Source of the DNA: a virus
Taxonomy: Duplodnaviria; Caudoviricetes
Virus record (IMG/VR): IMGVR_UViG_3300024331_000207
Coordinates: 1-64,000 of that record
Strand: one strand, 5' to 3'
DNA length: 64,000 nt
The number at the start of each line of letters is the position of its first letter. The stretch's first letter is position 1. The translations under genes and the position numbers were made by a program. The notes beneath the pieces were generated by a model. It worked only from the letters and a program-made list of their open reading frames with translations. It was not told the DNA's origin and made no database searches. Positions 1 through 42,769 of the stretch are shown here, piece after piece.

Positions 1-309
1 CGGGGAGGGCTTGGGTCGTCGGCCGGGGCGGGCTAGGTTCGGTGCGGTCGGGAAAGTCGGCGAGGCTAGGACTGGGATGGTCTGGCGAGTCGGCGGGGAA
101 CGGGTTGGCTCGGCATGGGACGTCGGCAGGGGCTGGGACGGAGTGGGGCGGCTTGGGTCGTCGGTGTGGGCCGGGCGGGTTCGGAATGGTGCGTCGGCAC
201 GGACAGGGTCGGGGCGGAGCGGGGAGGCTAGGCCAGGCCAGTCGGCAGGGGTTGGAAAGGAACGGGACGGGGTGGGGTGGCATGTCGTAGCCGTCTTGGT
301 ACCGGCGTC
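1..309 (-). repeat. GTC-delimited GGNNN pentamer array A (7 complete units plus a partial unit cut by the window edge) with terminal hairpin; putative C-rich ncRNA
   Basis: + strand parses without exception as (GGNNN)6-9 GTC: 21-55, 59-88, 92-121, 125-159, 163-192, 196-240, 244-283, then GTC GTA GCCG-loop-CGGC GTC. Strand inferred from TATAGT on - at 317-322. Confidence 0.9.
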
Positions 310-344
310 GGTGTCCACTATACGTCACCGGCGGAAGGTGAGAC

Positions 345-782
345 ATGGCTACTGATTACCTGGACTCCTGGACCTCGGACTGGGAATCCCGCAGCGACCC
401 GGAGCTGCTGCCGCAAGCCTGGCGGCTGCGCGAGCAGGGCTGGTCGCACACCGAAATCGCCGGTCAGCTCGGGATCACCGTTGCGCAGGCCTACCAGCTG
501 ACTGCGGTGCGGAAGAAGTACGAACGGACCCCCGACTCGGATGCCACCATCGGGCACCTGGCGACGACCGTGGTCTTCAACCTCTCCCACGCTGACTCGC
601 ACGTCGATAAAGCCATGGCGAGCCAGGGTGCCACGCGGCAGTTCAACTTGGAACATGCGCAGAAGCACCTCAAGGAGGCTGTTTCGCACATGGACCACTT
701 GTGTCAGGTCCTCGGGGACACCTACCCGAAGATCGGCAAGGAGTACGACGACATCGCGAACGACCTGGCACCTCTTGAGTGA
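345..782 (+). CDS. hypothetical protein with N-terminal helix-turn-helix
   Basis: AWRLREQGWSHTEIAGQLGITVAQAY is HTH-like; AAGGTG upstream; high GC3. Confidence 0.6.
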   Translation: MATDYLDSWTSDWESRSDPELLPQAWRLREQGWSHTEIAGQLGITVAQAYQLTAVRKKYERTPDSDATIGHLATTVVFNLSHADSHVDKAMASQGATRQFNLEHAQKHLKEAVSHMDHLCQVLGDTYPKIGKEYDDIANDLAPLE

Positions 783-1338
783 GCTGCCGCGGCCGGCGCG
801 CATCGCGGTCGCGGTCGACGCCACCAATGACCTGGCTGCCGCCTGCATCATCGTCAGCGGCATCCTGCCCGACGGCCGCATCCTGGTCGAGCGGGCCGTG
901 GACCCGAAGGGCCGGCAGGACCACCGGGCGGGGATCGCCTGGGTGGTGCCGCGGCTGAAGGAACTCAAGCTCCGCCAGCGGGTTGCCGCCGTCATCATCG
1001 ACCCGGCCTCCCCGGCGGGGTCGCTGCTGGTCGAGGCCGAGCGGGCCGGGCTGCCGCTGCAGCTGCCCGCCAGCCGCGAGATAGGCCAGGCCTTCGGGCA
1101 GTTCCTCGCGTGGGTGGCGGAGAAGAGGCTGCTGCATCTCGGCGAGGAGAACCCGGACCTGCGGCGGGCCGTGGCCATCGCGGTGTGCAGGGACATCGGG
1201 GACGGGCAGCGGGCCTGGAGCCGCCGCCACTCGCCGGGAGACATCACGCCGCTGTGCGCTGCGACGCTTGCCGCATGGGGGGCGCACAAGTTCGCGCGGC
1301 CGCTGGACCTGACCAAGACGGTTGTCGGCCCCACTTAA
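775..1338 (+). CDS. terL: terminase large subunit C-terminal (RNase H-like nuclease) domain as a separate ORF
   Basis: IAVAVD..., VIIDPASPAGSLL, LLHLG, AWSRR...DITPLCAATLAAWG resemble actinophage TerL C-termini; upstream of portal; TTG start overlaps the previous stop. Confidence 0.7.
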   Translation: MSELPRPARIAVAVDATNDLAAACIIVSGILPDGRILVERAVDPKGRQDHRAGIAWVVPRLKELKLRQRVAAVIIDPASPAGSLLVEAERAGLPLQLPASREIGQAFGQFLAWVAEKRLLHLGEENPDLRRAVAIAVCRDIGDGQRAWSRRHSPGDITPLCAATLAAWGAHKFARPLDLTKTVVGPT

Positions 1339-1352
1339 GGAGTGGAGGCCGC

Positions 1353-1745
1353 ATGCCACCTACGGACGCCAGGCGCGTAGGGGTTGACTTCGACGGGGTG
1401 CTCGTGCCCCGCAGCGGGCCCAACTCGAAGGGACCCGTCCGCGCCAAGCCGCTGCCGGGGGCCCTGGAGGCCGTGCGGATGCTGCTGGACGAGCGCGTCT
1501 CCGTGTTCATCCTCACCGCGCGGGACCCGGTGCTGCCGGTCTGCGACTGGCTGGAGGATCACGGGATGAAGACCGCCTACCGCGGCGGGCTCCCGGAGTA
1601 CTGGGCGCGGCGCGGGACGCTCCTTGTTACAAACATCAAGCTGCCGGCCGCCGCCTACATCGACGACCGCGCGATCCATTTCAGCTCCTGGCCGCAGGCG
1701 CTCGGCGACCTGGCGGCGAGGCTCAAGAGGACCGGCCCTACCTAA
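1353..1745 (+). CDS. HAD-superfamily phosphatase/nucleotidase-like protein
   Basis: VDFDGVL motif I, ILTAR motif II, K...YIDDRA motifs III/IV; GGAGG RBS. Confidence 0.75.
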   Translation: MPPTDARRVGVDFDGVLVPRSGPNSKGPVRAKPLPGALEAVRMLLDERVSVFILTARDPVLPVCDWLEDHGMKTAYRGGLPEYWARRGTLLVTNIKLPAAAYIDDRAIHFSSWPQALGDLAARLKRTGPT

Positions 1746-1763
1746 GCCGCATAGGAGGCAGCC

Positions 1764-2278
1764 ATGCCAGTCGGCGGAAGCACCTGGGCCCGCGGGCCCG
1801 AGGGCGACCCGGAGGAGACCGAGCTGCCGCAGAACGTGCAGTTCTCCATCTCCCAGATGCCGGTGCACTACACGCCGGTACCGCGCACCGAAGGACAGCA
1901 GAAGCTGAAGCGCGAAGTGCCCGGCCCGACGAAGGCGGAGCAGTGAGCACCCCGGCTGCCATGGCCAACCATGGCACCGTCACCCGGCTGCGCCTGTCGG
2001 ACGAGACGCTGGAGATCGTGCACGAGCAGGCCTCCAGGGTTACCTGGGGCCGGGTCATCCTCGGCACCATCGGCTTCGTGCTGTTCGGCACCGGCTGGCT
2101 GGTCGCCAAGACCCTGAAGCTGCTGCTGTACGCCGGCGCCTGGAGCTGGGCGGCCATGTCGGTCGGCTGGCGGCAGGCCCGCGGCGAGGCGGCCCGGCTG
2201 CCGAACACGGCTGAGCTACTCGCCGAGAATGACCGGCTCAGGAAAGAGCTGGCCCGCATCTCGCCAACCATGTCATGA
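1764..2278 (+). CDS. two small hypothetical proteins (1764-1946; 1943-2278 membrane protein)
   Basis: AGGAGG RBS, GTGA overlap, hydrophobic segment VILGTIGFVLFGTGWLV. Confidence 0.6.
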
Positions 2279-2382
2279 AGGGCTACGGATGCGACTGCGG
2301 GGACGCGCTGGCCGGCTGGCGGGTGAGGCTGCGCTACACCCTGTCCAGGCTGTGGCGGCGGGTTACCCGGAGGGGATAGCGG

Positions 2383-4209
2383 ATGGGCCTGGTTGACAGG
2401 ATTAACGCCGAGGTCCGCGCAATCGGCGGCGTGCCCTGGCAGCCCTGGGCAAATCCCTACTGGCGGTTTAATATCGGCGGCCCGGTTCACCCGTCAAGGC
2501 AGGTTCAGGGAATTGACGCCTGCCTCGGGCTGGCGGCGGTCTATTCCTGCATCCGCTTTATCGCCGATGCTGTGGCGTCGCTTCCGATAAACGTTTACCG
2601 GACGGGCAGGGACGGCAATCCGATCCTTGTCCCGCACAGCCAGTTCCTGGACCAGCCGTCCACGCAGATGAATCCGTATGAATGGATTTTCGCGGGCACG
2701 GCATCGGCGCTGGCTTACGGTAATTCCATTGGCCTGATCGTCTCGCGCACGGGCGTCACCAACCCTGACGGCCTCGGCTACCCGCAGGACGTGGACTGGC
2801 TGCCCATGGACCGGATCTCGATCCAGGACGATGAGCACCAGCCGTGGAACTCCCGGCGCGCCAAGGTCTACTTCGACGGGCAGCTGCTGAACCGCGAGGA
2901 CATGCTGCACCTGCGGGCGTTCGTCCTGCCCGGGCGGCTGGAGGCGATCAGCCCGATCCTGGCGTTCGCGACGCTGATCCAGCAGGGCCTGGACTCGCTG
3001 AGGTACTCGGCCACCTGGTTCGAGAACGGCGGCTTCCCGCTCGGCACGTTCACCAACTCTGAAGAAGAGGTGGACGTCCAGAGCGCCAAGGAGATCCGGC
3101 AGAACCTGACCGACACCCTCCGGCAGCACCAGCCGCTGGTCTACGGGCGGAACTGGGAGTACAAGGCCGTCACGGTCCCCCCGAACGAGGCCGCGTTCAT
3201 CCAGGCGATGCAGCTGAACGCAACCCAGGTGGCGGCGATCTACGGGATGCCCCCGTCCAAGGTCGGCGGCACCCGCGGGGACAGCCTGACCTACGCGACG
3301 CAGGAGCAGGAAACGCTGTCGATCATCACCGACACGCTGCGCCCGTGGCTGCGCCGCTGGGAGGTGCTGCTTAGCTCGTGCCTGCCGGCCACCCAGTACG
3401 TGAGATTCGATACCGACGCCTTGCTGAAGACAGACCTCAAGACCCGGTACGAGATCTTCCAGACCCAGCGGAACATGGGCATCCGGACCACCGACGAGCT
3501 GCGCGCCTCCGATGACCTGCCACCGCTGCCGCGCGGGGCCGGCAAGGGCGTGATCCCGCTGTCGATGCTGGAGCGGATGGCGACGACCACGCGGACACTG
3601 CCCAAGGCCTACATGAACGAGGTCGTGCTGGAGCAGGCGCTGATCGCCAACCTGATGGTGAAGCTGCAGAAGGAGGGATACGTCCCGCCGGACGACATCC
3701 CGGACAATCAGGCCGTCACCGCGCCGGGCAGCAGCCCCAAGGGCGCCAGCGCGGGCAGCGACCCGGTGCCGAGGAACAACGACGGGGCGGGCGGCGAGCC
3801 GGGCAGCTACCCGATCGCGCTGACGCCGCCGGAGTACCTGGGCCGGCAGATCACCGCGATCCGCTCGGCCCCCTCGGGGTTCACCCCGCCGCACGTCCGG
3901 TGCAGCAACGTCGAACGGGCGCGGGCATGCGACTGGATCGCGATGGCGCACCGCGTCGGCTGCCTGGACGAGGAAGAGATGATCCGGCGCACCGAGTCGG
4001 CGAAGGCGGCCCTCAAGCGCGGCATGCTCGGCGAGCTGACCGGCGACCTGCCCCCGGAGGCCGAGCTGCGCGCCGAGACTCTGCGGCTGGCCGAGCCGGA
4101 CGAGCAGGTGCACGAGGGCCCGCGGTCGTTCGCGCCGCTGTCGCTAGCCCAGCTGCGCGAGCGGGCGCGCAGGTGGGAATCCGAACCGTCACCGAACGGC
4201 AGCCATTAA
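2383..4209 (+). CDS. HK97-family portal protein with C-terminal extension containing a DUF1707-like domain
   Basis: AVYSCIRFIADAVASLP, YGNSI, QVAAIYGMPP, DTLRPWLRRWE, FDTDALLKTD portal motifs; gene position. Confidence 0.92.
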   Translation: MGLVDRINAEVRAIGGVPWQPWANPYWRFNIGGPVHPSRQVQGIDACLGLAAVYSCIRFIADAVASLPINVYRTGRDGNPILVPHSQFLDQPSTQMNPYEWIFAGTASALAYGNSIGLIVSRTGVTNPDGLGYPQDVDWLPMDRISIQDDEHQPWNSRRAKVYFDGQLLNREDMLHLRAFVLPGRLEAISPILAFATLIQQGLDSLRYSATWFENGGFPLGTFTNSEEEVDVQSAKEIRQNLTDTLRQHQPLVYGRNWEYKAVTVPPNEAAFIQAMQLNATQVAAIYGMPPSKVGGTRGDSLTYATQEQETLSIITDTLRPWLRRWEVLLSSCLPATQYVRFDTDALLKTDLKTRYEIFQTQRNMGIRTTDELRASDDLPPLPRGAGKGVIPLSMLERMATTTRTLPKAYMNEVVLEQALIANLMVKLQKEGYVPPDDIPDNQAVTAPGSSPKGASAGSDPVPRNNDGAGGEPGSYPIALTPPEYLGRQITAIRSAPSGFTPPHVRCSNVERARACDWIAMAHRVGCLDEEEMIRRTESAKAALKRGMLGELTGDLPPEAELRAETLRLAEPDEQVHEGPRSFAPLSLAQLRERARRWESEPSPNGSH

Positions 4210-4242
4210 CGCGCGCTGCGCTCATGACATCTGCAAGGAGAT

Positions 4243-5268
4243 GTGACAGTGACCGAAACGAGGGACGCCATGAGCGCCGCCGCCATCAACGACCTCCCTG
4301 ACTCCGCGTTCGCCTATATCGAGCCGGGCGGCAAGAAGGACGGCGACGGGAAGACCATCCCGCGGAGCCTGCGGCACTTCCCGGTCCACGACGCCGCGCA
4401 CACGCGCAACGCGCTGTCGCGGGCCAGTCAGTCCCCGTTCGGCGAGAAGGCGATGCCGAAGATCCTGGCCGCCGCGCGCAAGCAGGGCGTCGAGGTCTCG
4501 CAGAACCACGCGATGACGGCGGACGAGGAGATGCGCGAGCTGCGCGTCACCAGCTGCTACCGGGACCTGAACACCCCGCTGGAGATGCGGGACATGGGCG
4601 ACGGGACCCACTGGATCGGCGGCTATGCCAGCGTCTTCATGCCGCGGCAGAGCCGGAACCTGGGCGGCTTCATCGAGCAGGTGTCCCAGACGGCGTTCGA
4701 GGAGTCGCGGGCCGGCGACTGGCACGACGTCGTGTGCCGCTTCAATCACGACAGCAACTACATCCTGGGCACGACGGCGGCCAAGACGCTGCAGATCGGC
4801 GGCGACCGGCTCGGCCTGCGCTACGACGTGAAGCCGCCGGAGTCCCGCAAGGACGTGGTGGAGCTGGTCGAGCGCGGCGACATCCGCTACTCTTCGTTCG
4901 CGTTCCGGTGCAACCCCGGCGGCGACGAGTGGTCGATGACCGAGCAGGGCTTCCCGCTGCGCACCCTGCACAGCGTCGAGCTGCTGGACGTCTCCCCGGT
5001 GCTGTCGCCCGGCTACCCGGACGCATCGGTCGCGGTCCGCGCCACCAACGCCGCGCTCCGCAGCTTCGCCGGATTTTTCCAGGCTGAGGCCGATGAGGTG
5101 CGCGCCATGGCGGAGGCCGGCGAGCTGCGCAAGTTTTTCACTCGCACGGTCGCCGGGCAGCCAGTTCACCGGCCTGCGCCGCGCACCCTGTTCGGCCCGT
5201 CCGCCGCAGCGACCATCCTGGCCCGCCGCCGCGACCCGAGCGACATTCAGGACGACGACCTGGCCTGA
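4243..5268 (+). CDS. HK97-family prohead protease with extra N-terminal domain
   Basis: GYASVF, LGGFIEQV, FNHD, RGDIRYSSFAF, LLDVSPVLSPGYP. Confidence 0.9.
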   Translation: MTVTETRDAMSAAAINDLPDSAFAYIEPGGKKDGDGKTIPRSLRHFPVHDAAHTRNALSRASQSPFGEKAMPKILAAARKQGVEVSQNHAMTADEEMRELRVTSCYRDLNTPLEMRDMGDGTHWIGGYASVFMPRQSRNLGGFIEQVSQTAFEESRAGDWHDVVCRFNHDSNYILGTTAAKTLQIGGDRLGLRYDVKPPESRKDVVELVERGDIRYSSFAFRCNPGGDEWSMTEQGFPLRTLHSVELLDVSPVLSPGYPDASVAVRATNAALRSFAGFFQAEADEVRAMAEAGELRKFFTRTVAGQPVHRPAPRTLFGPSAAATILARRRDPSDIQDDDLA

Positions 5269-5293
5269 GAGGTCGTCCCAGGCCAGGTCGTCG
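5254..5293. terminator. 14-bp inverted repeat between the protease gene end and array B
   Basis: GACGACCTGGCCTG...CAGGCCAGGTCGTC. Confidence 0.5.
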
Positions 5294-5306
5294 CGACAGC
5301 TCATTA

Positions 5307-5375
5307 GGTGGGGCTGGGGCCGGGGCGGGACGGAGTGGCTTGGGGTGGGAAGTCATATCCGGAAGACCCGGAGTC
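5307..5375 (-). repeat. solo GGNNN pentamer unit B with terminal hairpin
   Basis: 9 pentamers (5307-5351), GTC ATA TCCGG-aagac-CCGGA GTC; TAAATT on - at 5382-5387. Confidence 0.8.
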
Positions 5376-5482
5376 ACCCTTAATTTACACCAACTACGTG
5401 GGACTGGAAGCCCCAGTCCCCGCCTCCCGCCCTGCGGGCCGAGGCAAAAGAAAACAGCACAGTCCGCAGGAAAGGAAAAGCA

Positions 5483-6781: not shown

Positions 6782-6804
6782 CAGGTCACAGAGGTTTTTC
6801 GAAC

Positions 6805-6843
6805 GGAGCGGCGCGAAGCACCCCCCCTGTTTCGTGCCGCTCC
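6805..6843 (+). terminator. hairpin after capsid gene
   Basis: GGAGCGGCGCGAAGCA...TGTTTCGTGCCGCTCC. Confidence 0.5.
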
Positions 6844-6856
6844 CCCCGGAGGGCTC

Positions 6857-9652: not shown

Positions 9653-9659
9653 GAGTGAC

Positions 9660-12410: not shown

Positions 12411-15400
12411 GTGAGCTGGGCATCGGTCGGCTCCTTCTTCTTCTCGACGAGCACCTCGTTCACGCTCACTCCGTCTGGCGTCGGCAACCTCTACATGCTT
12501 GAGGTCAACCAGTTCGCCAACAGCACGGTATGGGCGTCGGGGGTATCGAGTTCAAACGTCACCTGGACGCAGGTCGGTACTCACATACTGGCCACCGGCC
12601 GGGCCGGGACCTCCACGCTGTGGATGGGGACGGTTACCGCGGCCAGCGGTGCCACCGTCACCATCAGCTGGAGCGGCACGACGCCGGGCAGCCTGGTAAT
12701 CGACGGCCACGAGTTCTCCTCGACCGCAGGCTCCTGGGCTGCTGACAACACGGCGCTGCTGAACGGGTCCGGGACGAACACCTGGCCGAGCATCGCCGCC
12801 GCTTCCGCGGGCGAGCTGTACTTCGGGGCCGCTGTCGACAACGGCACGTGCGTGGCCGGGTCCACCTCCGGCTTCACCTATAACGTCAACGCTGACAGCT
12901 GCGGCGCGGCGTACAACCTCAGCTGCTCAAGCGGCACTGTGGCCGGCCCGGTGTGGGGCGACTCCCAGCACATGTTCGGGGTCATGGCGCTGATCCAGGA
13001 GATCAGCCCCAGCCCCCCCGCCATGCCCGTGCAGGTACCGCCGGGCCGCCGGTCACCTCAGGCGTTCCGGTTCCGGCCTCCGCTGCCGCCGATGGTTCCC
13101 GCGCCGCAAACCTACTACGTTTCCCCCTCGGGCTCGGACTCCAACTCCGGCTTGTCGCCGGCTTCGGCGTGGCAGACCGTCGCCAAGGTGAACAGCGTCG
13201 CGCTGCGCCCCGGCGACACCGTGCTTTTCGAGTCGGGGCAGTCATGGACATCCTCGACGCTGTTCCTGACCTCGCAGGGCTCCACGGCCTCGCCGATCAC
13301 CATCGGCATCTACAACGGCTCCGCTAATGCCACCATCTCCAATGGCGCCAACAACGCCGTCTACATCCAGAACGCCGGCGGCTACCGGCTGCAGAACATC
13401 ACCGCAGGCGGGGTCAGCGGCTCGACCTCCTTCAACGGCATCCAGTTCTTCTGCTCCGGGACGGGGCAGCTGCCGGCGATCGAGCTGGACAGCTGCAGCG
13501 CAACGGGGTGGCAGTACGGCCTGTCGATCGGCGGTAGCTCCTCCGGTGACGGCTACAACGGCATCACCGTCAACGGCGGCACCTGGAACAGCAACCTGTA
13601 CCAGGGCATCCAGATCTTCGGGCCCACGTTCAGCTCTTCCAGCCCGGTCTGGTCCCACGCGAACCTGCTGATCACCGGGGTGGACGCCTCCGGCAACCTT
13701 GGCTCCGCCTCCGTCACCGGCTCTGTCACCGGCTTCGGCGCGTCGATCGGGTCAGTCAGCGGCGGCACCGTCCAGAACAGCACGTTCCACGGCAACGGCA
13801 CCAGCAACGGCGACACCGCCCAGGGGCCGGTCGGGTGCATGCTGTACGCCTGCTCGGGCGTCACGATCCAGAACTGCCTGGCTTACGCCAACGGGACCGG
13901 CACCACAGCCGACGGCGAGGGCTTCGACCTCGATATCGACTGCACTGGCTGCACGATCCAGTACTGCCTGTCCTACGGGAACCAGGGTGCCGGGATCATC
14001 TGCTACGGCGGCACCGGTGACAGTTACTGGGGCTCGACCGCGCCCAACACGGTCCGGTGGAACGTCACCTGGGGCAACGGCACTATCGGCGCGAGCAACA
14101 GCAACTACGGCGGCGAGCTGACCCTCGCGGGCAACCTGAGCGGCCTGCAGGCCTACAACAACACGTTCGTGGCCATCCAGAGCGGCTCCGCCGTGCCGCC
14201 CGCCCTGGCGGTCCACAGCGGCACCATGGCGGGCTGCAGCCTCCGCAACAACATCTTCTACATTGCCGGCTCGTCCTCGGCGGCCGCGGTCCATGCCGAC
14301 AGCAGCATGGCATCGACGGCCGTCCTGCTGCAGGGCAACAGCTACTGGAGCGAGAACAGCAACACGGCGCTGTTCTGGGGAATCAGCTACGCCACTCTCG
14401 CGGCGCTGCGCAGCGGCGTTACGGGCCAGGAAGTAAACGGCGCGTCGAACACGGGCATTCAGGTCGCCACGGGGCTGCAGAACCCGGACACCGGCCCCGC
14501 GGTCACCACCGTCGCCGCGATCCCGTCCTACGTCGGGATCGCCCTGGTGCCCGGCAGCCCGGCCATCGGCGCGGGCCTGGACCTGAACTCGCTGTTCAGC
14601 ATCAACCCCGGCACGCTGGACTTCTACGGCGCCACGATATCGGTCCCGCTGCCGATCGGCGCGGACTTCGCGACGATGGTCCTGGACGCCACGGCGGCCC
14701 TGGCCGGCGCGGGCTCGGCATCCCCGGTCCCCGTCATCAGCGTTGCCGCGAAGCTGGCGGGCTCAGGGTCCGCCGCCGGCCAGTCCGTCGTCCAGGTGGC
14801 CGCCGCACTGGCAGGCTCGGGCGCAGCCGCCTCCGGCGTGGCGATCGGCGTCAGCGACACGGCTGGCGGCTCGGGCGGCGCATCCTCGGGCTCCGGCCTC
14901 GGGGTCGCCTCGGGCCTGCAGGGGCTGGGCAGCGCATCCCCCGTGCCCGCGATCAGCGTCAAGGGGACCCTGGCCGGCTCCGGGGGCATCGCCTCCGGCG
15001 TCGCGATCGACGTCTTCTCGGGCCTGGCCGGCTCCGGCAGCGCCGGCGGCGGCACGACCGGCAGCAGCACCCAGAACGGCGGCCTGGCAGGCGCCGGCGC
15101 GGTGCGCGCCACGGTCATCATCGGCGCCACGGCGCTGCTGGCGGGGTCGGGCGGCGCGACACCGGGCGCCACCATCGGCGTCACGGACGCGCTCGGCGGC
15201 TCGGGCGGGGCATCGTCGGGGTCAGGGCTGGGCACGGCCTCAGGCCTGGCCGGCGCGGGCAGTGCCGTGGCGGTCCCGGCGCTGATCGTCGCCGGCTCGC
15301 TGGCCGGGGCGGGGTACGCCAGCACCCCTAACCCCAACATCGTCTTCGTCACCGCCGCGCTGGCGGGGGCCGCCTACATCACCGCCAGCGCGCCCTCCGC

Positions 15401-26121: not shown

Positions 26122-26470
26122 CTGGGACATCCCGGTGACTGACGAGTACCTGCGCCAGGTCTCGCTCGCCGTGGTTTATGAGCTGGCCCCGCGGGTCGAC
26201 GCGGTGGCCACCGCGCTGGCGCCGGTGCTGACCCGGCACACCCCGGTGCCGAGGTACGTCAAGCGCCGGAGCCACGGGCACGGCGGCCACCTGAAGGCGT
26301 CAGTGCACTGGGCGTGGAGCGAGGACTCCGACGGCATTTACGCCGACATCCTCTCGTTGTGGTACGGCCGCTTCCTGGACCCGAAGGCCGAGCAATTGCA
26401 CTATAAACGTCCCTTCCTCCCGACAGCGTTGTACGCCGTTTGCCAGGGACGGGTCCTGTATTTGGGCTAG
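26105..26470 (+). CDS. HK97 gp10-like neck/tail protein
   Basis: GHLKASV, YGRFL, RPFLPTAL. Confidence 0.6.
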   Translation: MTVQVDWDIPVTDEYLRQVSLAVVYELAPRVDAVATALAPVLTRHTPVPRYVKRRSHGHGGHLKASVHWAWSEDSDGIYADILSLWYGRFLDPKAEQLHYKRPFLPTALYAVCQGRVLYLG

Positions 26471-26548
26471 GGCAGGCTCGTCGGCTTGGGCAGGGTGGGG
26501 AGGGCTGGGTTCGGAGCGGTTTGTCGTAGCCGTCCTATTACCGGCGTC
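26465..26548 (-). repeat. GGNNN pentamer array C (3+8 pentamers, GTC-delimited) with terminal hairpin
   Basis: pentamers 26465-26479 and 26483-26522, then GTC GTA GCCG-tcctattac-CGGC GTC; TACTGT on - at 26555-26560. Confidence 0.85.
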
Positions 26549-26588
26549 AGTTCAACAGTATCCATTCACCGCCATAGGAGCCGCAACC

Positions 26589-34793: not shown

Positions 34794-34858
34794 CCAGAGG
34801 CTCTTGTGATTCCTGTTACAGGGCTACATCCAGCTGCGTCCAGGGTAGGCGATCCCTG

Positions 34859-36013: not shown

Positions 36014-36025
36014 GCAAGGAGAAGA

Positions 36026-36979: not shown

Positions 36980-37189
36980 GGCGAGATGGGCAGGCTCAGG
37001 CTCCGGCCCAGGCCCGCGAAAGCCGGGGCCGGGCACCGGCACCGCTTCACCGAAGAGGTCAGGAGGGTGCGTGCCAGGACCCGCGGCGAGTACGACGTCA
37101 CCCGGCGCTGCAGCGTCAGCGGGTGCACCGAGGAGAAGGTCTTCACCGAGACGGAGTGATCAGCTGACCAGCGAGAGGAGGTGAGGCAA

Positions 37190-37360
37190 ATGGGGAGCAT
37201 CGGAGCATACGCGAAGTCGCTCGTGGCACTCACCTCGGGTGTCCTGACGGCACTGGCCCCGTACTACGGCAGCGAGAAGTGGTTCGCCGCCCTCACGGCG
37301 GGGCTCGGCGTGATCCTTGTCTACGCCATCCCGAACCAGAAGCCGCCCGGCTCCGTGTGA
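37190..37360 (+). CDS. putative holin (56 aa, two TM helices; not in ORF track)
   Basis: MGSIGAYAKSLVALTSGVLTALAPYYGSEKWFAALTAGLGVILVYAIPNQKPPGSV; GAGGAGGTGA RBS. Confidence 0.65.
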   Translation: MGSIGAYAKSLVALTSGVLTALAPYYGSEKWFAALTAGLGVILVYAIPNQKPPGSV

Positions 37361-37375
37361 GAACGGGATGCAAGC

Positions 37376-37415
37376 GCCCCGCCTGCGAGTTGCGGCCTCG
37401 CGGGCGGGGCATTTT
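37376..37415 (+). terminator. intrinsic terminator ending the structural arm
   Basis: GCCCCGCCTGCGAG...CTCGCGGGCGGGGC ATTTT. Confidence 0.7.
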
Positions 37416-37750
37416 CGCGTCCCCGGGTACCGGGCCTTCCCGGGTCAGCCGGCCGCGCCCGCTGCGTTGATCCGCGCCTTCGGGGCTGCTCTCTGCACGT
37501 CCCCGGGGACAGGACGGAGCCTAGCACGCCGCGCATGCTTAGCGCACTGTAGCGCGTGTTGCCCCGAATGCAGGGCAGAGCGGGGCAACGGGGGGTATCG
37601 TGCGGCTAGTCCGGGGAGGGCGGCCGGCTGGCACTGGCCGCCCTCCCGCCACCGTCCCGTGAAGGGGACTGCCTTGATAAGTTCTACCGTGCCGCGGCGG
37701 CAGTATGCGCCGCCGGACCCGATTCGTGACGAAATCGTCAGGGCCTCGTC

Positions 37751-38521
37751 ATGACTGCCACCCGGACGCCCGGCAGGCACCGGGCTCAGCAGGTGCCCGG
37801 GCCGGTCACGGCGGCGATGGCGGTTATCGGGAAGCCGCGCGGCCGGGCGGCCGAGCTGGCGCTGCGCGCCTGGCCGGCGCTGCCGGCGCTGGCGCTGGCC
37901 CGCTGCGCGATGCACCGGGAGCTGGCGGGCTACGCCGATGCCGTGCTCGGCTACGACGCCCTGCTGTGCCTGCTGGCCTGCCTGGCGGTCACCCCGTTCC
38001 TGACAGCGGCGAAGCTGCGCATCGCAAAGCTCCGGTGGTGGTACGGCATCTGGGTTTTCGTGCTCGGGTTCGCCGGGCTCATGGTGCACCTGCTCGCCAT
38101 GCCGGGCGCGTACGCGGCCCGCGCGTCAGGCAATGCCGCCAGCTGGAGCGGCCTGCTGATCGTGGTGCTGCTGGCGCCGATGGCGGCGACCTCCACCGCG
38201 GTGGCGCAGAAGGCGCTGGGGACGGAGTGGAAGACCTGGCAGCGCGGGCTGATCTGGGCGGTTGCCGCCGTCACGCTGGCCCACCTGCTGACGATCCGCG
38301 ACTGGCTCACGGCGGCCGCCTACGCAGCGGCGATGGTGCCGCTGATCGTGATGCGCATCCCGCGAGTGCGGCGGTCGGTTAAGCAATGGCGGGGAAACCG
38401 GTACGACACGCGTGGCCTATGGGTTACTCTTGCGATACTTTGCACCGTCCTGGCCGCGGGCGTCACGGTCCTTCTCGCAAGGGAAGGAGCGTCGGTTGCC
38501 TCCGCAATCCGGCTCGCTTAG
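37751..38521 (+). CDS. MsrQ/YedZ-like (ferric reductase-type) membrane protein
   Basis: LAVTP, LRWWYG, LAPMAATS...ALGTEWKTWQR, LAH; 6-7 TM helices. Confidence 0.65.
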   Translation: MTATRTPGRHRAQQVPGPVTAAMAVIGKPRGRAAELALRAWPALPALALARCAMHRELAGYADAVLGYDALLCLLACLAVTPFLTAAKLRIAKLRWWYGIWVFVLGFAGLMVHLLAMPGAYAARASGNAASWSGLLIVVLLAPMAATSTAVAQKALGTEWKTWQRGLIWAVAAVTLAHLLTIRDWLTAAAYAAAMVPLIVMRIPRVRRSVKQWRGNRYDTRGLWVTLAILCTVLAAGVTVLLAREGASVASAIRLA

Positions 38522-38658
38522 CAAGCTCGGGCTGCGGTTTGCAGTCTCGGCGCTCCTGCTGCTGGCGGTCGCACTGTCCGTCGCGGGCACCGCAGCCCTC
38601 GGCGCGTACCAGGTCCGCGAGCAGGGCCGCACGTTCTGGGCCCTGCCGAAGGAGGGAA

Positions 38659-39915
38659 ATGAAGGGAAAGCACCGGCAGCCGGCAAGGCCCCGCGAGAGC
38701 GGGCGGCTGCGGATCGGTATCGCGTACGGAGCGGGAGTGGCACTGGTAGCCCTCGGGGGCATCGCAGTGTCGGCAGCAGTAAGCTCGCCCATCGCCAGCC
38801 AGGCGGCCTCAGCCTCCCGGCAGGCCTCTGAGCAGGCTCTGACGGTCGCCTTCCGCGGCGGCCCGGCGCTTCCGCCCGCCGCGGGGGGCACGGTGAGCCA
38901 GCTCACCGCCAGCCCGGACTGCACGCTGCAGGTCCCGCAGAACCCGCTGTCCGCGCAGGGGCTGATGACCCCGTACGTACTGGGCTCGGCCGGCCGGCAG
39001 TGCAGCGAGGCTAATGAGGGCCTGGCTGCGTTCGTCGAGGCCACCATCTTCGACCCGGCGACCGGCGCGCTGAGCGTCTACGACCCGGCCGTGCGGGACG
39101 CGGGCCAGCCGCTGCTGGGCAGCCCGCCGGACCCGGTGACGCTGCCGCCTGGCGCGGTGGTGACCGTCTGGACCGGCTTCAACGGCAACGTCCTGAAGCT
39201 GACAGGCCCGGGCCACGGCCAGTTCGCCAGCTTCGCGCAGCAGGGCTACGCCAACAGCCCGCAGTTCTACGCGGCCGTGAACGCCGCCGTGCACAGCGGG
39301 AAGACGATCGTGCCCGCGCTCGGCACCGGCAGCGACGGCATGACCTGCCCGTCCACCCGCGACTTCTCGGTGGTGGACCAGGACCAGTCCGACAACACCA
39401 CGGTCGGCTACCCCGCCTACGGGGTGACCAACGGCAGCGACGACGCGCTGCTGCAGCACATCCAGGCCGCGCTCGGCTGCTCCCGGTGGACTGTGGCCGG
39501 CGGCACGTCCGGCGCGCTGGAGGAGCTGCAGGCCGCCTACGCGCAGGCGCCCCCGCAGGCGCTGGTGCCGTCCCTGGACCCGTTCGTGCTGAGCAACGGC
39601 CAGCCCAGCGTGTTCCTGCAGAACCTGTACCGGCTGCAGCTGGACCAGCCGGCGGCCGGCGGGCATGACACGGCAGCGTACTGCCAGAACCTGCTGGCCA
39701 TCGGCGAGCCCCGGCTGAAGGCCGACCAGTCCGCGGACGCCGCCCAGCCGGCCCCGCAGTTCGCGCCGATCGGGACCGACCTGTCCCTGGTGCTGGCCGC
39801 CCGGTTCGAGGCGACATGGGGAAACCTGGACTGCCAGGCGCTGACCGGGCAGTCCTCGCCCATCACGGTGATGACAGACGGCAACGGGGTGGCCGTTTCT
39901 GCCGCCTACGCGTAA
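38659..39915 (+). CDS. secreted or membrane-anchored Cys-containing hypothetical protein
   Basis: N-terminal hydrophobic anchor; CTLQVP-NPLSAQGL, CPSTRDFSVVDQDQSDN; AAGGAGG RBS. Confidence 0.7.
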   Translation: MKGKHRQPARPRESGRLRIGIAYGAGVALVALGGIAVSAAVSSPIASQAASASRQASEQALTVAFRGGPALPPAAGGTVSQLTASPDCTLQVPQNPLSAQGLMTPYVLGSAGRQCSEANEGLAAFVEATIFDPATGALSVYDPAVRDAGQPLLGSPPDPVTLPPGAVVTVWTGFNGNVLKLTGPGHGQFASFAQQGYANSPQFYAAVNAAVHSGKTIVPALGTGSDGMTCPSTRDFSVVDQDQSDNTTVGYPAYGVTNGSDDALLQHIQAALGCSRWTVAGGTSGALEELQAAYAQAPPQALVPSLDPFVLSNGQPSVFLQNLYRLQLDQPAAGGHDTAAYCQNLLAIGEPRLKADQSADAAQPAPQFAPIGTDLSLVLAARFEATWGNLDCQALTGQSSPITVMTDGNGVAVSAAYA

Positions 39916-39923
39916 CCTTCATC

Positions 39924-39960
39924 GAGCATCCGCCCCGTCCTCTGTCCGGGGCGGATGCTC
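39924..39960 (+). terminator. 14-bp hairpin
   Basis: GAGCATCCGCCCCG...CGGGGCGGATGCTC. Confidence 0.6.
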
Positions 39961-39977
39961 CTCATTTAAGGAGACAG

Positions 39978-40520
39978 GTGAGCAACTGGTCATGGCCCGC
40001 GTTCCTGCGGGAGATCGAGGCCACCGAGAAATCCTGGATCATCAAGGGCACCAGCCCCGGGCCCGGCATGGTGGGCTGGATACCGCAGCCTCTCGGGCAG
40101 TTCGCGGCGATGCTGATGGATGCCATGGCGGCCTCCCAGGTCAGCCGTCCGGTCTTCCTGGACGCCGGCTCGGGGCCGGGCACCAAGGTGCTGCTGGCGG
40201 CGGCCCTGTTCGGCATCCGCGGCTACGGCATCGAGCTGTCGGCGGACATGGCGCACGCCGCCCAGGCCCGCGGGGCGGACACGCTGATCGCGGACTGCCT
40301 GACCTACGACGGCTACGGGATGGCCGACATCGTGCTGCTCAACCGGCCGGTGGCCGGCCGCCAGGCCGAATGCGAGCAGCGGGTGCGCGACCTGATGCAC
40401 CGCGGCGCCGTCCTGATCCACGTGAACGGGCGCAGCGACCCGGGCACGGACTGGGACTGGGAGCTGGTCAGCCAGGAGTACGGCGAGCCCGTCACCGGCG
40501 TCTGGAGGAAGCCGTCATGA
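39978..40520 (+). CDS. class I SAM-dependent methyltransferase
   Basis: FLDAGSGPG, YGIEL. Confidence 0.75.
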   Translation: MSNWSWPAFLREIEATEKSWIIKGTSPGPGMVGWIPQPLGQFAAMLMDAMAASQVSRPVFLDAGSGPGTKVLLAAALFGIRGYGIELSADMAHAAQARGADTLIADCLTYDGYGMADIVLLNRPVAGRQAECEQRVRDLMHRGAVLIHVNGRSDPGTDWDWELVSQEYGEPVTGVWRKPS

Positions 40521-40670
40521 CCCGCGAAACCGGCGTCTGCATCCTGTGCGGCCACTTCTACGAGGGCGCCGGTGGCGACGAGGCGGAGGCGGAGCACCTG
40601 GCCAGCGCGCACGGCCTGGCCAGGAACGCCGAGGGCCTGCTGTACCCGCTGCCGCCGGCCGGCTGAAGTA

Positions 40671-40880
40671 TCACCCCTGTCGACCGTGTTCCGCTTCCCA
40701 GTGATCGCGGGCATCTGCGGCGAACTCCCAGAGTTCGATTTCCCCGCACGATTCACCCCAGCGACAACCCTGATACCGGCAGGACACCATGACCCGATTG
40801 TCCTTCACGGAAAGATAGAACTCGGTGTCCTCGCCGCCGAGGGCGTCCACTGCCTGGTCAACGTAGTCGCTCGCGCTCAC
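40671..40880 (-). CDS. hypothetical protein
   Basis: ORF with good codon bias. Confidence 0.5.
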   Translation of the reverse strand: MSASDYVDQAVDALGGEDTEFYLSVKDNRVMVSCRYQGCRWGESCGEIELWEFAADARDHWEAEHGRQG

Positions 40881-40883
40881 TGC

Positions 40884-41138
40884 CTAGGCTGCCTGGTCCA
40901 GCAGCAGTTCGCCGGGCTCGCAGCCCAGCACGATGCACAGCCGGTCGAACGTCTTGACCAGCGGGGCGCGCTTGCCGTTCTCCAGGTGGCTGACCTCCGC
41001 GCGGGAGATCCCCACCTCTTCAGCCAGCTGCGCCTGGGTGAGCCGCACCTTGGTCGTGCGGAGCCTGCGGAGCTTCTCGCCGCTGACGCCGCCGACTGCG
41101 CGGGCTCGGCCGGCCGAGATCTTGGCCGTGTCGGTCAT
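40884..41138 (-). CDS. XRE-family HTH regulator
   Basis: LTQAQLAEEVGISRAEVSHLENGK. Confidence 0.85.
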   Translation of the reverse strand: MTDTAKISAGRARAVGGVSGEKLRRLRTTKVRLTQAQLAEEVGISRAEVSHLENGKRAPLVKTFDRLCIVLGCEPGELLLDQAA

Positions 41139-41340
41139 CTGCGCAGCCTCCTGAAACTATTTAATGTAACGCACGCTCAACGCGGCATGCAAGCACTGTA
41201 TCATAGCTGGCCAGCGGCCAGCTATGCCCCGTCGCCGTCGTCCGCGTACTGGGCAAAGTCGCCAAGGTCCACGACCTGGCCGCGCTCCACACGGGCGAGG
41301 GCCTCGCGGATCGCTGCTGCCAGCTCCTCCGGCATGTCCA

Positions 41341-41670
41341 TCACGCCTCCTGCGACCAGCCGCTGATGTCGAACATGCCGCCCGGCAGCAGCTTAACCGG
41401 CCCGGCCGGCCACAGCCAGTGCGGGACGGGGATGTCCGCGGGATCATCCCAGGAGGCTACCAGCCAGCCCTGCTCCAGCGCCTCGCCGGGATGCTGGTGC
41501 GCCCAGTCGTGGCAGGCGGAGCAGAGGGTCACCTGATTCTCCCACGAGTCGGTGCCGCCCTGGCTGCGCAGCCAGCGATGGTGCACGTGAAGGCAGTCCG
41601 CAGCCCCGCAGCGCGCGCAGTGGCCGTGATCGCGCTCGCGGATCTCTTCCCGCGTGACGGAGCGGCTCAG
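41341..41670 (-). CDS. HNH endonuclease (possible CTG start)
   Basis: ERDHGHCARC...VHHR...GGT...NQVTLCSACH. Confidence 0.7.
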   Translation of the reverse strand: MSRSVTREEIRERDHGHCARCGAADCLHVHHRWLRSQGGTDSWENQVTLCSACHDWAHQHPGEALEQGWLVASWDDPADIPVPHWLWPAGPVKLLPGGMFDISGWSQEA

Positions 41671-41930
41671 TTGCCGCCGCCGCCGTTGCCGTCGTCGGCC
41701 GGTGCCGGGGTGAATACCACTGAAACCTCCTCGCCGAGCCGGTTCACGAACCAGTCAGCTGCGCCCGGGTTCTTGATCGTCATCTGGACCTGGCCGGAAG
41801 GGGTGGCCCTCGCCCAGCCCTTGTTGTGCTCGCCGCGGGAGACCGCCTGCATCTTGACGGTGACGGACTCCGGGTCGTACGAGTTGCGCTCGTAGCCGCT
41901 GATGTAGAACCGGGCCTCGACTGCTGACAT
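41667..41930 (-). CDS. hypothetical phage protein
   Basis: GAAAGG RBS; WARATPSGQVQMTIKNP. Confidence 0.65.
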   Translation of the reverse strand: MSAVEARFYISGYERNSYDPESVTVKMQAVSRGEHNKGWARATPSGQVQMTIKNPGAADWFVNRLGEEVSVVFTPAPADDGNGGGGN

Positions 41931-42228
41931 GGCTGCGCCTTTCGCGATTCGCGATTCGTGAATCCTGCGGGCCTGCGACGGACCTTCAGAGTCAAGCCGA
42001 GCCAGCTTCAGTGTAGCGCCGCGCCTCTCGCTGCCCTGCTACACCCACGGCGTGTCCGCGCGATCGACAGGGCCGGCCGGCACGCGCCCCTGCGCCTGCG
42101 GGCAGGCCTCATCCCACTGGCGCTGCAGGTCCGCCATCCTGGCGTCCCATTCCGGGGTATGCGCGACTCCGGCGGCTACCTCGATCCGGTAGCGCGCGAG
42201 CGTGTAAATCTCTGCCGGATACATGCGG

Positions 42229-42522
42229 TCAGGCAGCCTGGCCGTCACGCTCGCGGCGCGCCTCGGCGGCCTGGCGCCGCGCAGTCTCCTGCTGGTTCTC
42301 GCGCTTGCGCACGGGAGCCTCGCCGCGCGTCCAGCCCATCTCGGCGCGGATGCGGTCCGCCCAGCGGCGGGCGTCGGCCTTCGGCGGCCCCGTGGGCCGC
42401 TTGTACTGCGGGGGATGGGGCGGCCAGGGGCCGGGCTCGGTGACCTCCTGGCGGTCGCAGTGGCGCGCGATATGGCCCAGCCCACCGCAGGCGAAGCAGC
42501 GAAACGGCTCGTCGTCATACAT
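42229..42522 (-). CDS. CCHC zinc-knuckle protein
   Basis: CFACGGLGHIARHC fits CX2CX4HX4C; GGAGG RBS. Confidence 0.7.
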   Translation of the reverse strand: MYDDEPFRCFACGGLGHIARHCDRQEVTEPGPWPPHPPQYKRPTGPPKADARRWADRIRAEMGWTRGEAPVRKRENQQETARRQAAEARRERDGQAA

Positions 42523-42614
42523 GGTGTGCGTCCTCCCGTCAGGCTCGCGTCAACTGTCTGATACCCACTATATCCGGGGAAATCCAGGAGCGAGCCGCAC
42601 AGGCGGAAAGTGCA

Positions 42615-42731
42615 GGTCAGGGGCGGTCGGGGAAGGCACGTCGGCGCGGGCAGGGTGGGGCCGGGAAGGCTCGGGCCGGGCAGGGGCGGGTAGTCGGGAC
42701 GGCGTGGTTTGGCTAGCCATCTACAGGCGTC
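42615..42731 (-). repeat. GGNNN pentamer array D (5+10+4 pentamers, GTC-delimited) with terminal hairpin
   Basis: 42615-42639, 42643-42692, 42696-42715, then GCC-atctaca-GGC GTC; TACACT on - at 42738-42743. Confidence 0.85.
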
Positions 42732-42769
42732 GCAGCCAGTGTAGCGCTGAGTGCACCAGGGGAATTAGG

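Follow-up and report, generated by a model that had tools for sequence, protein, structure and literature searches.

Candidate self-promoted, orphan guide-RNA cassettes of a second VIPR-like system in an actinomycete phage

The window analysed here (64,000 nt, positions 1 to 64,000 of IMGVR_UViG_3300024331_000207, the record of a tailed phage from soil) contains four GTC-punctuated arrays of pentamers, designated A to D, which raise the question of which of their strands is made into RNA and which protein such an RNA would serve. VIPR systems, first described in 2026 and put forward as ancestral to CRISPR backbones, consist of the RAMP protein Vipr, a vrRNA and vap, with Escherichia phage SUSP1 and a Pseudomonas fulva prophage as type II exemplars (bioRxiv 10.64898/2026.04.26.720920 = PMC13142463; 10.64898/2026.04.26.720927). 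Every VIPR tested in print uses G-rich guides, in which a fixed GG(Y) is held by the protein and a conserved tail lies 3' of the repeats (bioRxiv 10.64898/2026.04.26.720920; 10.64898/2026.04.26.720927). The phage has a VIPR locus of its own (Table 1), the vipr product of which matches the profile of SUSP1 Vipr (PDB 36pp; E = 2e-9) and yields a model (AF2 pLDDT 90) with Foldseek matches to Csm3/Cas7; apart from this RAMP, cas genes were not found. In A4-type vipr loci the G-rich arrays are co-directional with vipr and are accompanied by a G-sense promoter, a layout that agrees with published sRNA-seq (PMC13142463). The GTC-type arrays are a second class, distinct from the GGYNN array beside vipr, in which a covariance-model search of the 97.6-kb record found no GAC-hairpin module.

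On the plus strand, each of the four arrays is a (GGNNN)n tract ending in TA-[G/T]CC-loop-GG[C/A]-GTC, followed after N6-7 by ANNNTA; on the minus strand, all four ends read TANNNT-N6-7-GAC-hairpin. The original prediction that one shared hairpin and an antisense -10 box end all four arrays held when the coordinates were rechecked base by base. Runs of at least six GGNNN pentamers occur only at arrays A to D and at the 50.4-50.9 kb array, while shuffled genomes reach runs of four only, and the perfect runs, confined to these sites, consist of 6-10 pentamers in tandem that share a fixed dinucleotide. Over 152 units, base composition at the free positions is almost even. The third pentamer letter on the G strand is G in 41%, C in 28%, A in 17% and T in 14%, and thus is not the pyrimidine of GGY, which, given the published NNNGG variants, is compatible with membership of a wider VIPR-like class. 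In the C sense, the array RNAs would be approximately 57% C, in a strict 5-nt register and with a mode of six pentamers per unit. Array A reads GGNNN with GTC punctuation on the plus strand and GAC(NNNCC)n on the minus strand, and extends in the whole genome over approximately 500 nt (L252 9440-9940). In the direction of the flanking late genes, arrays A to C read as G-rich, their C-rich strand being antisense inside the late operon, and arrays have been found in both orientations relative to neighbouring genes. Array letters evolve fast with the grammar retained, and cassette B (approximately 139 nt) is missing from the closest capsid-gene relative. The arrays are not of the CRISPR kind, as the only punctuation is the 3-nt GTC and neither tandem-repeat analysis nor direct inspection found identical repeats of 24-40 nt.

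Table 1. Positions of the arrays, modules and associated genes in the window
Feature	Position	Strand	Remarks
Array A	1..283	-	promoter-proximal 283 nt of an array of ~500 nt, clipped at contig edge; seven complete units of 6-9 pentamers
Module A	284..309	-	hairpin handle GAC-GCCG..CGGC-TAC-GAC; GTC 307-309
-10-like box A	317..322	-	TATAGT (+ strand ACTATA), N7 before GAC; predicted start near 309
Inverted repeat, far end of cassette B	5254..5293	.	14-bp; folds with flanks as 19-bp hairpin
Array B	5307..5351	-	one unit, 9 pentamers
Module B	5352..5387	-	TAAATT (5382-5387; + strand AATTTA), N6, GAC-TCCGG..CCGGA-TAT-GAC; GTC 5373-5375
Array C	26465..26522	-	3 + 8 pentamers; starts at stop codon of upstream + gene
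Module C	26523..26560	-	TACTGT (26555-26560; + strand ACAGTA), N6, GAC-GCCG..CGGC-TAC-GAC; GTC 26546-26548
CCHC zinc-knuckle gene	42229..42522	-	downstream of D; own TATAGT box at 42567-42572
Array D	42615..42715	-	5 + 10 + 4 pentamers
Module D	42714..42743	-	gcgcTACACT (box 42738-42743; + strand AGTGTA), N6, GAC-GCC..GGC-TAG; GTC 42729-42731
Canonical G-sense GGYNN array	50448..50874	-	beside vipr; one-base-overlap (GGCAG|G) punctuation
Accessory gene, vap-like (phrog_15946)	50888..51454	-	overlaps vipr; same gene pair in relatives
vipr gene (Cas7-like RAMP)	51364..52125	-	protein of 226 aa from inner start codon

The covariance model of the module (R1) recovered exactly four copies in the 97.6-kb record, those of A to D. 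Extended across phages, as had been suggested with the original prediction, the search recovered at least 25 copies outside this record, with 17 in other viral contigs and eight in a related 90.8-kb phage. The stems (GCCG/CGGC in A and C, TCCGG/CCGGA in B, GCC/GGC in D) do covary, as was claimed, with compensatory changes at three pairs: G-C to U-A at pair 1 in three sequences, C-G to U-A at pair 3 in L063 and L117, and G-C to A-U at pair 4 in two sequences. A conserved structured element flanks the repeat tract; read on the G strand it would be a 3' tail, and on the C strand a 5' handle. The hairpin itself is weak (3-5 bp) and is sometimes missing from the minimum-energy fold, and the C-sense array RNAs have no more structure than shuffles (z 0 to +1.1). 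The whole RNA of cassette B has z = -4.8, owing to the 19-bp hairpin at its far end, which is likely to be the terminator of a C-rich RNA of approximately 125 nt. In the relative G001, one array closes at its C-sense 3' end with a canonical terminator of hairpin and U-tract (T5), and hairpins occur at other arrays. The module and array RNAs have no match in Rfam and no 6C fold.

At all four sites in this phage, the TANNNT hexamer lies 6-7 nt ahead of a purine, as in a -10 box of the sigma-A type. Across 19 modules, TANNNT starts 12-15 nt ahead of the A of GAC in 14, against a background of 0.0015 per position, and this offset is constant despite unrelated flanks. The box accompanies 15/17 solo modules but none of the seven (0/7) that directly follow a second RAMP gene, family X (Fisher p = 1e-4); the solo modules bearing it represent only some six contigs. 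On the G-rich strand, no conserved -10 box was found beyond the far end of the arrays (4/14, at scattered positions). Box types gcgcTACACT and TATAGTgg also precede minus-strand protein genes of this phage, that of module D recurring before the genes at 42015 and 52694, and in relatives TATACT is found ahead of the zinc-knuckle gene. A two-hexamer sigma-70 scan called none of the four sites, with no -35 hexamer at 16-18 nt. Many actinobacterial promoters are without a -35.

Family X is a Cas7-like RAMP of other phages and prophages of Streptosporangiales, with a predicted Csm3/Cas7 fold and no detectable sequence similarity to Vipr (hhalign probability 0.1). It adjoins the same module in ten loci. 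In nine of these, the module and C-rich array lie on the strand of X, 16-80 nt downstream, and reach the ribosome-binding site of the next gene, so that transcription of the C-rich strand is required at these loci. The guess of a 'CC-type subtype' gained real support from this arrangement of hairpin and array directly downstream of a second Cas7-like RAMP. In two of the loci (L279 and L281) X and the module are separated by a strong hairpin that no -10 box follows. Lysogens are available in culture, among them Nonomuraea wenchangensis CGMCC 4.5598, Streptosporangium sp. NPDC023963 and Microbispora sp. ATCC PTA-5024. Family X was not found in the whole 113-kb genome of this phage, and the GTC-type arrays are therefore orphans here.

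Taken together, the four GTC-type arrays are, with a little more confidence than an even chance would give, self-promoted orphan guide-RNA cassettes of a second VIPR-like system, made as C-rich RNA. The protein partner would be the family X RAMP, encoded by other phages or prophages and without sequence kinship to the phage's own Vipr. Each cassette would be its own transcription unit under a sigma-A-type -10 box (TANNNT), with the RNA starting at or beside GAC, six to seven bases past the box. Its 5' end would form the short conserved hairpin handle GAC-GCC..GGC-TA, followed by unstructured C-rich units of GAC(NNNCC)6-9, and some copies may close with a terminator hairpin. Judging from gene order and the boxes, we infer that the C-rich strand is the RNA that is made and loaded. 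Each pentamer would read three target bases, the first two variable letters pairing with codon letters 1-2, and the protein would hold the constant CC, which is GG on the opposite strand. This code has been applied to the 10-pentamer unit of array D (42643-42692), which decodes to YACGEFGHCA and matches the zinc-knuckle motif in frame at 17/20 code letters in two rival homologues (L282, L283), against 15/20 in the phage's own zinc-knuckle gene; 0/300 shuffles reached 17. The threshold for calling VIPR guide matches in published work is 80%. Homologues of the zinc-knuckle gene in rival phages are thus the putative target of the D unit. For the remaining units, no target above shuffles was found in 2.2 Mb, and an exact scan of viral contigs gave no matches. 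Solo vrRNAs of SUSP1-family phages and satellites commandeer the RAMP of another element (bioRxiv 10.64898/2026.10.15.759431) and, by analogy, the cassettes may let the phage turn against its rivals a RAMP supplied by a resident prophage or by a co-infecting phage.

The claim in the original prediction that these are separately promoted C-rich RNAs has comparative support in the constant box offset, the restriction of the box to modules with no same-strand RAMP gene upstream, the lack of a far-end box and the G001 terminator, although the published rule of G-rich guides offers a plain rival for the same hairpin. Under that rival, the arrays are ordinary G-strand VIPR guides, (GGNNN)n, in which GTC is the unit boundary, the hairpin is the 3' tail, and ANNNTA either belongs to that tail or serves as an antisense promoter in some subsidiary function, for example to lower guide output or stop read-through. 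This main rival is considered unlikely. On the G-rich strand the arrays fit exactly the published rule, under which Vipr sequesters GGY and the repeats lead into an invariant, structured 3' tail; published VIPR work also mentions NNNGG variants, and it is positions 4-5 of GGNNN that carry the informative letters, just as in GGY-NN. Arrays in the late-gene sense begin at the upstream stop codon, and read-through would therefore give the G-rich RNA that arrays A to C encode in that sense. In G001 the order of X, array and hairpin is canonical on the G-rich strand, the hairpins just past the module in L279 and L281 would suit a G-sense RNA ending there, and the missing -35 at all four sites and the weak module hairpin count against the C-strand reading. 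Nevertheless, G-strand guides leave unexplained why the three conserved letters form TANNNT at promoter distance from a purine and why this box is restricted to solo cassettes. The far end shows no G-sense promoter, and the G001 hairpin and T5 terminator stands directly ahead of the G-sense start of one array. Furthermore, in nine of the ten X loci such a guide would be made head-on within the operon, with no space for its own promoter or terminator.

It is improbable that C-rich RNAs are made but are not guides, acting instead as cis-antisense RNAs of late mRNA, in duplex with its G-rich spacers, or as a sponge for a host factor with a preference for unstructured C-rich RNA, such as Rho or RNase E. 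The cytosine content, the shuffle-like lack of structure, the antisense position of A to C within the late operon and the fast array evolution under constant grammar are all consistent with such roles. Against them stand the tight link to a Cas7-like RAMP, the in-frame match of the D unit, and the strict register and modal unit length, neither of which Rho needs; moreover, many arrays are co-directional with their neighbours and therefore have no sense partner for antisense action. The earlier idea of decoy or antisense RNAs against GG-type guides is not borne out: the variable letters show no complementarity to those guides, and the target decoded from one unit is a protein gene. Least probable of all is a DNA-level element (iterons, quadruplex DNA, GTC primase sites or a REP-like mobile palindrome, with TANNNT as part of a recognition site), which would account for the two orientations of the arrays, the insertion of cassette B, the likeness of GTC to the T7 primase recognition site and that of TAGCC plus hairpin to the GTAG plus hairpin of REP elements, but no transposase, RAYT or recognisable primase is linked, the letters ahead of GTC are unlike primase sites, and the RAMP linkage and codon-register match favour an RNA guide.

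If the reading as C-rich guides is extended to its full form, which is proposed only tentatively, the (pro)phages of actinomycetes would harbour a mirror-imaged VIPR-like branch, in which a distinct Cas7-like RAMP holds CC in place of GG and the guide is 5'-GAC-hairpin-(NNNCC)n with GAC punctuation. This phage, with a GG-type VIPR of its own, would plant promoter-equipped orphan CC-type arrays in its late operon, to take over a prophage RAMP and silence rival genes such as the zinc-knuckle gene. VIPR as a kind is already in print; the X-type layout suggests the opposite polarity to the published systems, namely C-rich guides that carry their handle at the 5' end. Were a C-rich branch true, the fixed anchor of the gapped code would not be bound to GG, the polarity of guide loading could flip towards a crRNA-like order of 5' handle then guide, and a single phage could carry a system of its own together with orphan guides suited to a different type. 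If instead the G-strand reading were true, a conserved antisense promoter at guide genes would still want explanation. The two readings make opposite predictions from the same DNA as to the RNA strand and the RNA bound by the RAMP.

The GTC-type cassettes resemble VIPR in being phage-carried, in having a lone Cas7-like RAMP as putative partner, in being built of pentamers that combine a fixed dinucleotide with free letters, and in bearing a conserved structured element next to one end of the repeats. A code of three target bases per pentamer, free letters on codon letters 1-2 and targets in rival phages would also be shared. They differ from VIPR in that the third position is not a pyrimidine, and the units are shorter (mode 6) and split by an extra GTC/GAC, whereas VIPR uses tails, ribozymes or one-base overlap. 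The structured element is a hairpin of 3-5 bp rather than a pseudoknot tail of 40-60 nt, the candidate cognate RAMP is family X, with no detectable similarity to Vipr, and gene order and -10 boxes point to a C-rich RNA with a 5' hairpin. As with the solo vrRNAs of SUSP1-family phages and F5 satellites (bioRxiv 10.64898/2026.10.15.759431), guide genes without a cognate RAMP gene in the genome are scattered in non-coding regions, the self-match is below the match to rivals, and a conserved handle is kept, so that both would be loadable into the protein of another element. The carrier here is not VIPR-null, unlike those of solo vrRNAs, but combines a working-looking VIPR of another type with X-type orphans, which are multi-unit (approximately 500 nt at most here, with lengths of 1.2 kb or more reached in relatives) and inserted inside the late operon of a phage whose host clade is actinomycetes. 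Class 1 CRISPR arrays likewise have a promoter-bearing leader at one end, a Cas7-fold backbone and a short conserved 5' tag per guide (GAC here). They differ in their long identical repeats, their cas1/cas2 and other cas genes and their contiguous recognition and, unlike CRISPR spacers, guides with a 5-nt grammar cannot be captured protospacers. Finally, actinobacterial 6C sRNA and Rho rut sites would share a C-rich, G-poor and largely unstructured RNA from a -10-only promoter, from which the cassettes are set apart by their strict pentamer register and RAMP linkage.

Runs of at least six perfect GGNNN pentamers occur in five places only, while shuffled genomes reach runs of four only; the five arrays and their surroundings are collected in the table. 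The IMG/VR record, of which the window is the first 64 kb, has 97,652 bp (70% G+C), and a second assembly of the same phage exists as an ENA contig of 113,335 bp (ERZ27256707 k141_79530; L252 / L277). The phage genome is thus at least 113 kb, and breaks in the assemblies tend to fall within array A. Genes for ParB, a radical SAM enzyme, an epimerase, glycosyltransferases and DUF397 proteins lie on the 15.7 kb that the IMG/VR record lacks. Late genes on the + strand (HTH protein, portal, S78 protease, capsid, tape measure) extend from 345 to ~40.5 kb and are followed by minus-strand genes. Beyond the window, the record carries a Ku homologue (PF02735) and an AAA_25 helicase-like gene (76442-77269, 89019-90407), and its non-coding right end (96911-97652) holds the inverted repeat CGTTAGCCTTGCTAACG three times together with many GGACAT motifs, giving it an operator- or origin-like look. 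Megablast of the phage DNA returned no match, and no cultured relative is close (capsid identity ≤31%).

Pentamer arrays and neighbouring features, in window positions
Feature	Position	Strand	Remarks
Array A	1-283	G-rich on +	GTC-broken
Cassette B	5269-5407		~139 nt
Array B	5307-5351	G-rich on +	GTC-broken
Array C	26465-26522	G-rich on +	GTC-broken
Zinc-knuckle gene	42229-42522	-	97 aa; just downstream of D
Array D	42615-42715	G-rich on +	GTC-broken
D unit	42643-42692		10 pentamers
DUF7873 gene	43187-43960		region with tRNA-Asn, 42803-43960
C-5 cytosine methylase-like gene	47925-48659	-	short
Cas4-like PD-(D/E)XK exonuclease gene	49451-50332		
Hairpin	50345-50376		
VIPR locus	50448-52125	-	complete
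Fifth array	50448-50874	G-rich on -	430 nt; no GTC
Hairpin	50878-50893		
vipr gene	51364-52125	-	226 aa

Arrays A to D end alike. On the + strand all four ends read TA-[G/T]CC-loop-GG[C/A]-GTC, then 6-7 bases and ANNNTA, which on the minus strand becomes TANNNT-N6-7-GAC-hairpin-TA; the original prediction had described this shared hairpin with an antisense -10 box, and on re-reading it holds base for base. A covariance model built from 15 copies of the module, a search that had been proposed with the prediction, recovered exactly the four copies in the phage's own record, 17 in other contigs and eight in G001, a related 90.8-kb phage (capsid identity 61%). The GAC and TA do not vary among copies, and the stem covaries at pair 1 (G-C to U-A), pair 4 (G-C to A-U) and, in two contigs (L063, L117), pair 3 (C-G to U-A). 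In 14 of 19 modules, with flanks that cannot be aligned, a TANNNT starts 12-15 nt ahead of the A of GAC, against a background of 0.0015 per position. The variants seen (TATAGT, TACTGT, TACACT, TAAATT, TATACT, TAGTCT, TACTTT, TATAAT, TAGACT) show just the degeneracy of the actinobacterial -10 box, and in the + strand reading the final T never occurs. Scans for two-hexamer promoters and U-tract terminators called none of the four array sites, and Rfam at gathering threshold called tRNA only. Placement of ANNNTA inside a second hairpin or pseudoknot was rejected, since comparison of the modules by eye gave no consistent pairing. In an IMG/VR scan, six-pentamer units flanked by two GTCs were found in 37 stretches, and the same module closes many of those arrays; among genome contigs, matches were mostly single chance or low-complexity ones, and real arrays were confined to a small number of actinomycete and MAG records. 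Searches of the literature gave no result for phage repeats of the GGNNN or pentanucleotide type, nor for decoy RNAs rich in C.

VIPR systems have been described in three 2026 preprints (bioRxiv 10.64898/2026.04.26.720920, PMC13142463; 10.64898/2026.04.26.720927; 10.64898/2026.10.15.759431). According to these, a lone RAMP encoded by a phage polymerises along a vrRNA of GGY/NN pentamers with a conserved 3' tail and reads DNA at three bases per pentamer, the NN letters pairing. Satellites and phages employ solo vrRNAs, which come without a vipr gene, to redirect the protein of a rival, and 'staggered' arrays (one-base overlap) and NNNGG variants are also mentioned. The published Vipr tree distinguishes seven types. 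The RAMP gene assumed by the original prediction is a real Vipr: a profile of its homologues matches PDB 36pp, 'SUSP1 Vipr protein' (E = 2e-9), and its AlphaFold model (pLDDT 90) matches Csm3/Cas7 RAMPs, while no Pfam family was matched. The fifth array is G-rich and lies, in the same direction, downstream of vipr and of the accessory gene that overlaps it (phrog_15946); with its GGC-NN pentamers and its one-base-overlap punctuation (GGCAG|G register shifts) it matches the published description. The same layout is found in three relatives, one of which has a G-sense TTGACG-17-TATATA promoter. The array is bracketed by two hairpins, and the Cas4-like exonuclease gene comes next.

The GTC-type arrays differ from this canonical array in that the third letter is not a pyrimidine, the units are short (mode six pentamers, range 3-12), an extra GTC stands between units and a short hairpin lies at the array end. 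Such arrays are also present in G001 and in three further genomes (G002, G003 and G005), none of which has a relative of the phage's Vipr. Comparison of five genomes all against all yielded one family, present in four of the five and always adjoined by the module, which a profile search confirmed. This family X comprises proteins of ~240 aa, widespread in Streptosporangiales genomes. By sequence it matched nothing in Pfam or the PDB, and by profile it shows no similarity to Vipr. The family X model (pLDDT 89) matches Csm3/Cas7 (E = 1e-7), and its secondary-structure elements follow one another in an order parallel to Vipr's. The earlier guess at a CC-type subtype has thus gained a concrete partner, a RAMP. 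In nine of ten X loci, one strand carries in order a ~140-aa gene, X, 16-80 nt, GAC-hairpin-TA, a C-rich (NNNCC)n array with CCGAC punctuation and the ribosome-binding site of the next gene. The exception is G001, where X converges on the array unit across a bidirectional terminator. By profile search, family X is absent from the window's phage, including the 15.7 kb missing from the record. Cultured strains with an X-type locus include Nonomuraea wenchangensis CGMCC 4.5598, Streptosporangium sp. NPDC023963, Microbispora sp. ATCC PTA-5024 and Sphaerisporangium siamense.

Several neighbours of these loci were recorded. A gene of ~135-150 aa always precedes RAMP X with a 4-nt overlap (L278-L281 and L172, all X loci), and may be an accessory (vap-like) partner of the X type; the same loci lie in prophage early/replication regions near WhiB, DnaC-like loader, DnaB and DUF932 genes. 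The phage's methylase-like gene has a homologue in G001 (13858-14466), located directly upstream of a module and array and running in the sense of the C-rich strand. A 333-aa gene to the left of array A was rejected as a diverged RAMP (hhalign probability 0.3). The two genes flanking a Streptosporangium array were dropped as relatives of Vipr (A4); one of them is RAMP X by fold.

Five points speak for the C-rich strand as the RNA. The first is the distribution of the -10 box, which was found in none of the seven modules directly after X and in 15 of 17 solo modules, which lack RAMP X directly upstream (Fisher p = 1e-4), a count from which a filter excluded the window's B and C and two contigs (L279, L280), all four of which agree with the pattern. 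The promoter-like box is therefore found just at those modules that could not be transcribed from an upstream gene. On the G-rich strand nothing comparable was seen past the far end of the arrays (TANNNT in 4 of 14, at scattered positions). In X loci the space from X to the ribosome-binding site of the following gene is taken up by the array, so that the C-rich strand must be transcribed for operon expression; a 1.8-kb array in L108 occupies a position of this type. In the C sense, one G001 array closes in a canonical hairpin and U-tract terminator and others in hairpins, and cassette B ends in a 19-bp hairpin, for a predicted RNA of ~125 nt. Applied to A4-type vipr loci, the phage's own type, the same layout logic predicts a G-rich sense, which is the sense verified in print (PMC13142463). 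On these sequence grounds we lean towards the C-rich strand as the guide RNA, and the self-promoted C-rich RNAs of the original prediction are the best-supported reading, short of proof.

Counting against the C-rich strand are the missing -35 at array modules and the weakness of the module hairpin. That the G-rich strand is the guide is a less likely alternative, which fits three more points against the C-rich strand. Every tested VIPR has G-rich guides with a 3' tail, and the arrays fit on the G strand with informative letters at positions 4-5; in two X loci (L279, L281) X is separated from the module by a strong hairpin, and no -10 follows that hairpin; and late-operon read-through would make A to C as G-rich RNA anyway. 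In G001, however, a hairpin and T5 terminator stand directly ahead of the G-sense start of one array. Judged by free-triplet composition, the C strand gives the best fit to codon positions 1-2-3 (KL 0.21 versus 0.31-0.66), but this was not used to decide, because the sample is small and targets are possible on either strand. The further proposal of decoy RNAs against GG guides found no support, and a Rho or RNase sponge, T7-type primase sites at GTC, REP/RAYT-like mobile palindromes, an R-loop or quadruplex origin and a ribosome standby site were considered and dropped.

The fifth point for the C-rich strand is that the phage has the same boxes ahead of minus-strand protein genes (gcgcTACACT at 42015 and 52694, TATAGTgg at 42572). 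Boxes of the form gcgc-TACACT or TACAGT, also TATAGTg, recur beyond these at 52119, 37551 and 26405 (all minus) and at 58729 (+), mostly ahead of minus-strand genes; the copies at 37551 and 26405 lie antisense within the late region.

Evidence on guide function comes from the D unit, whose C-rich strand triplets (TAC GCC TGC GGC GAG TTC GGC CAC TGC GCG) translate as YACGEFGHCA. The neighbouring minus-strand gene encodes a protein with a retrovirus-type CCHC zinc knuckle, CFACGGLGHIARHC (PF00098 at threshold). Its only two homologues in a collection of 5.8 billion proteins read YTCGEYGHYA and YSCGELGHYA; a back-translation search of viral contigs found no relatives. The D unit matches the DNA of both homologues (L282, L283) in frame at 17 of 20 first-two-codon letters and its own gene at 15 of 20. 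In the two homologue loci, all of 300 pentamer-order shuffles stayed below 17. At 85%, the match passes the 80% threshold of the VIPR paper, and a lower self-match has been reported for orphan guides (bioRxiv 10.64898/2026.10.15.759431). Array D is absent from both homologue loci, where a TATACT box precedes the gene. This sequence match supports guide function with a code of three bases per pentamer, and is silent on strand given that either strand may be targeted. An exact gapped-pattern scan of IMG/VR viral contigs with the D unit gave no match, and in a local target search of 2.2 Mb, run under five skip rules with every long unit, those of the canonical array among them, no result exceeded pentamer-order shuffles. 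Nearby, a minus-strand tRNA-Asn (GTT) adjoins the DUF7873 gene, a pair also found upstream of the zinc-knuckle gene in L283, and a DUF7873 homologue lies beside an array in another contig (L102); Rfam at gathering threshold called nothing at 42882-43031, where a permuted tRNA had been proposed.

Cassette B consists of half a terminator, the array, the hairpin and the box. It is missing in L003, the closest relative by capsid gene (83% identical), which has 21 nt in its place. There is no array synteny between the phage and G001, ~6 kb of which consists of arrays in both orientations, and array sequence turns over fast while the hairpin is kept. The cassettes therefore behave as autonomous units that are gained and lost. 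In other relatives, the spot of cassette B holds different inserts, including inverted repeats of GCCAGCACGCC (L004, L033) and + strand -10 boxes (TAGCAT, TAACAT, TATAGT) ahead of the capsid gene.

Since the vipr gene and the fifth array match published VIPR, this kind of system is already in print. What appears to be new in comparison is a GAC-punctuated, hairpin-handled class of arrays, a RAMP family belonging to it, layout and promoter evidence for the opposite, C-rich strand, and the occurrence of X-type orphan arrays in a phage whose own VIPR is of another type.
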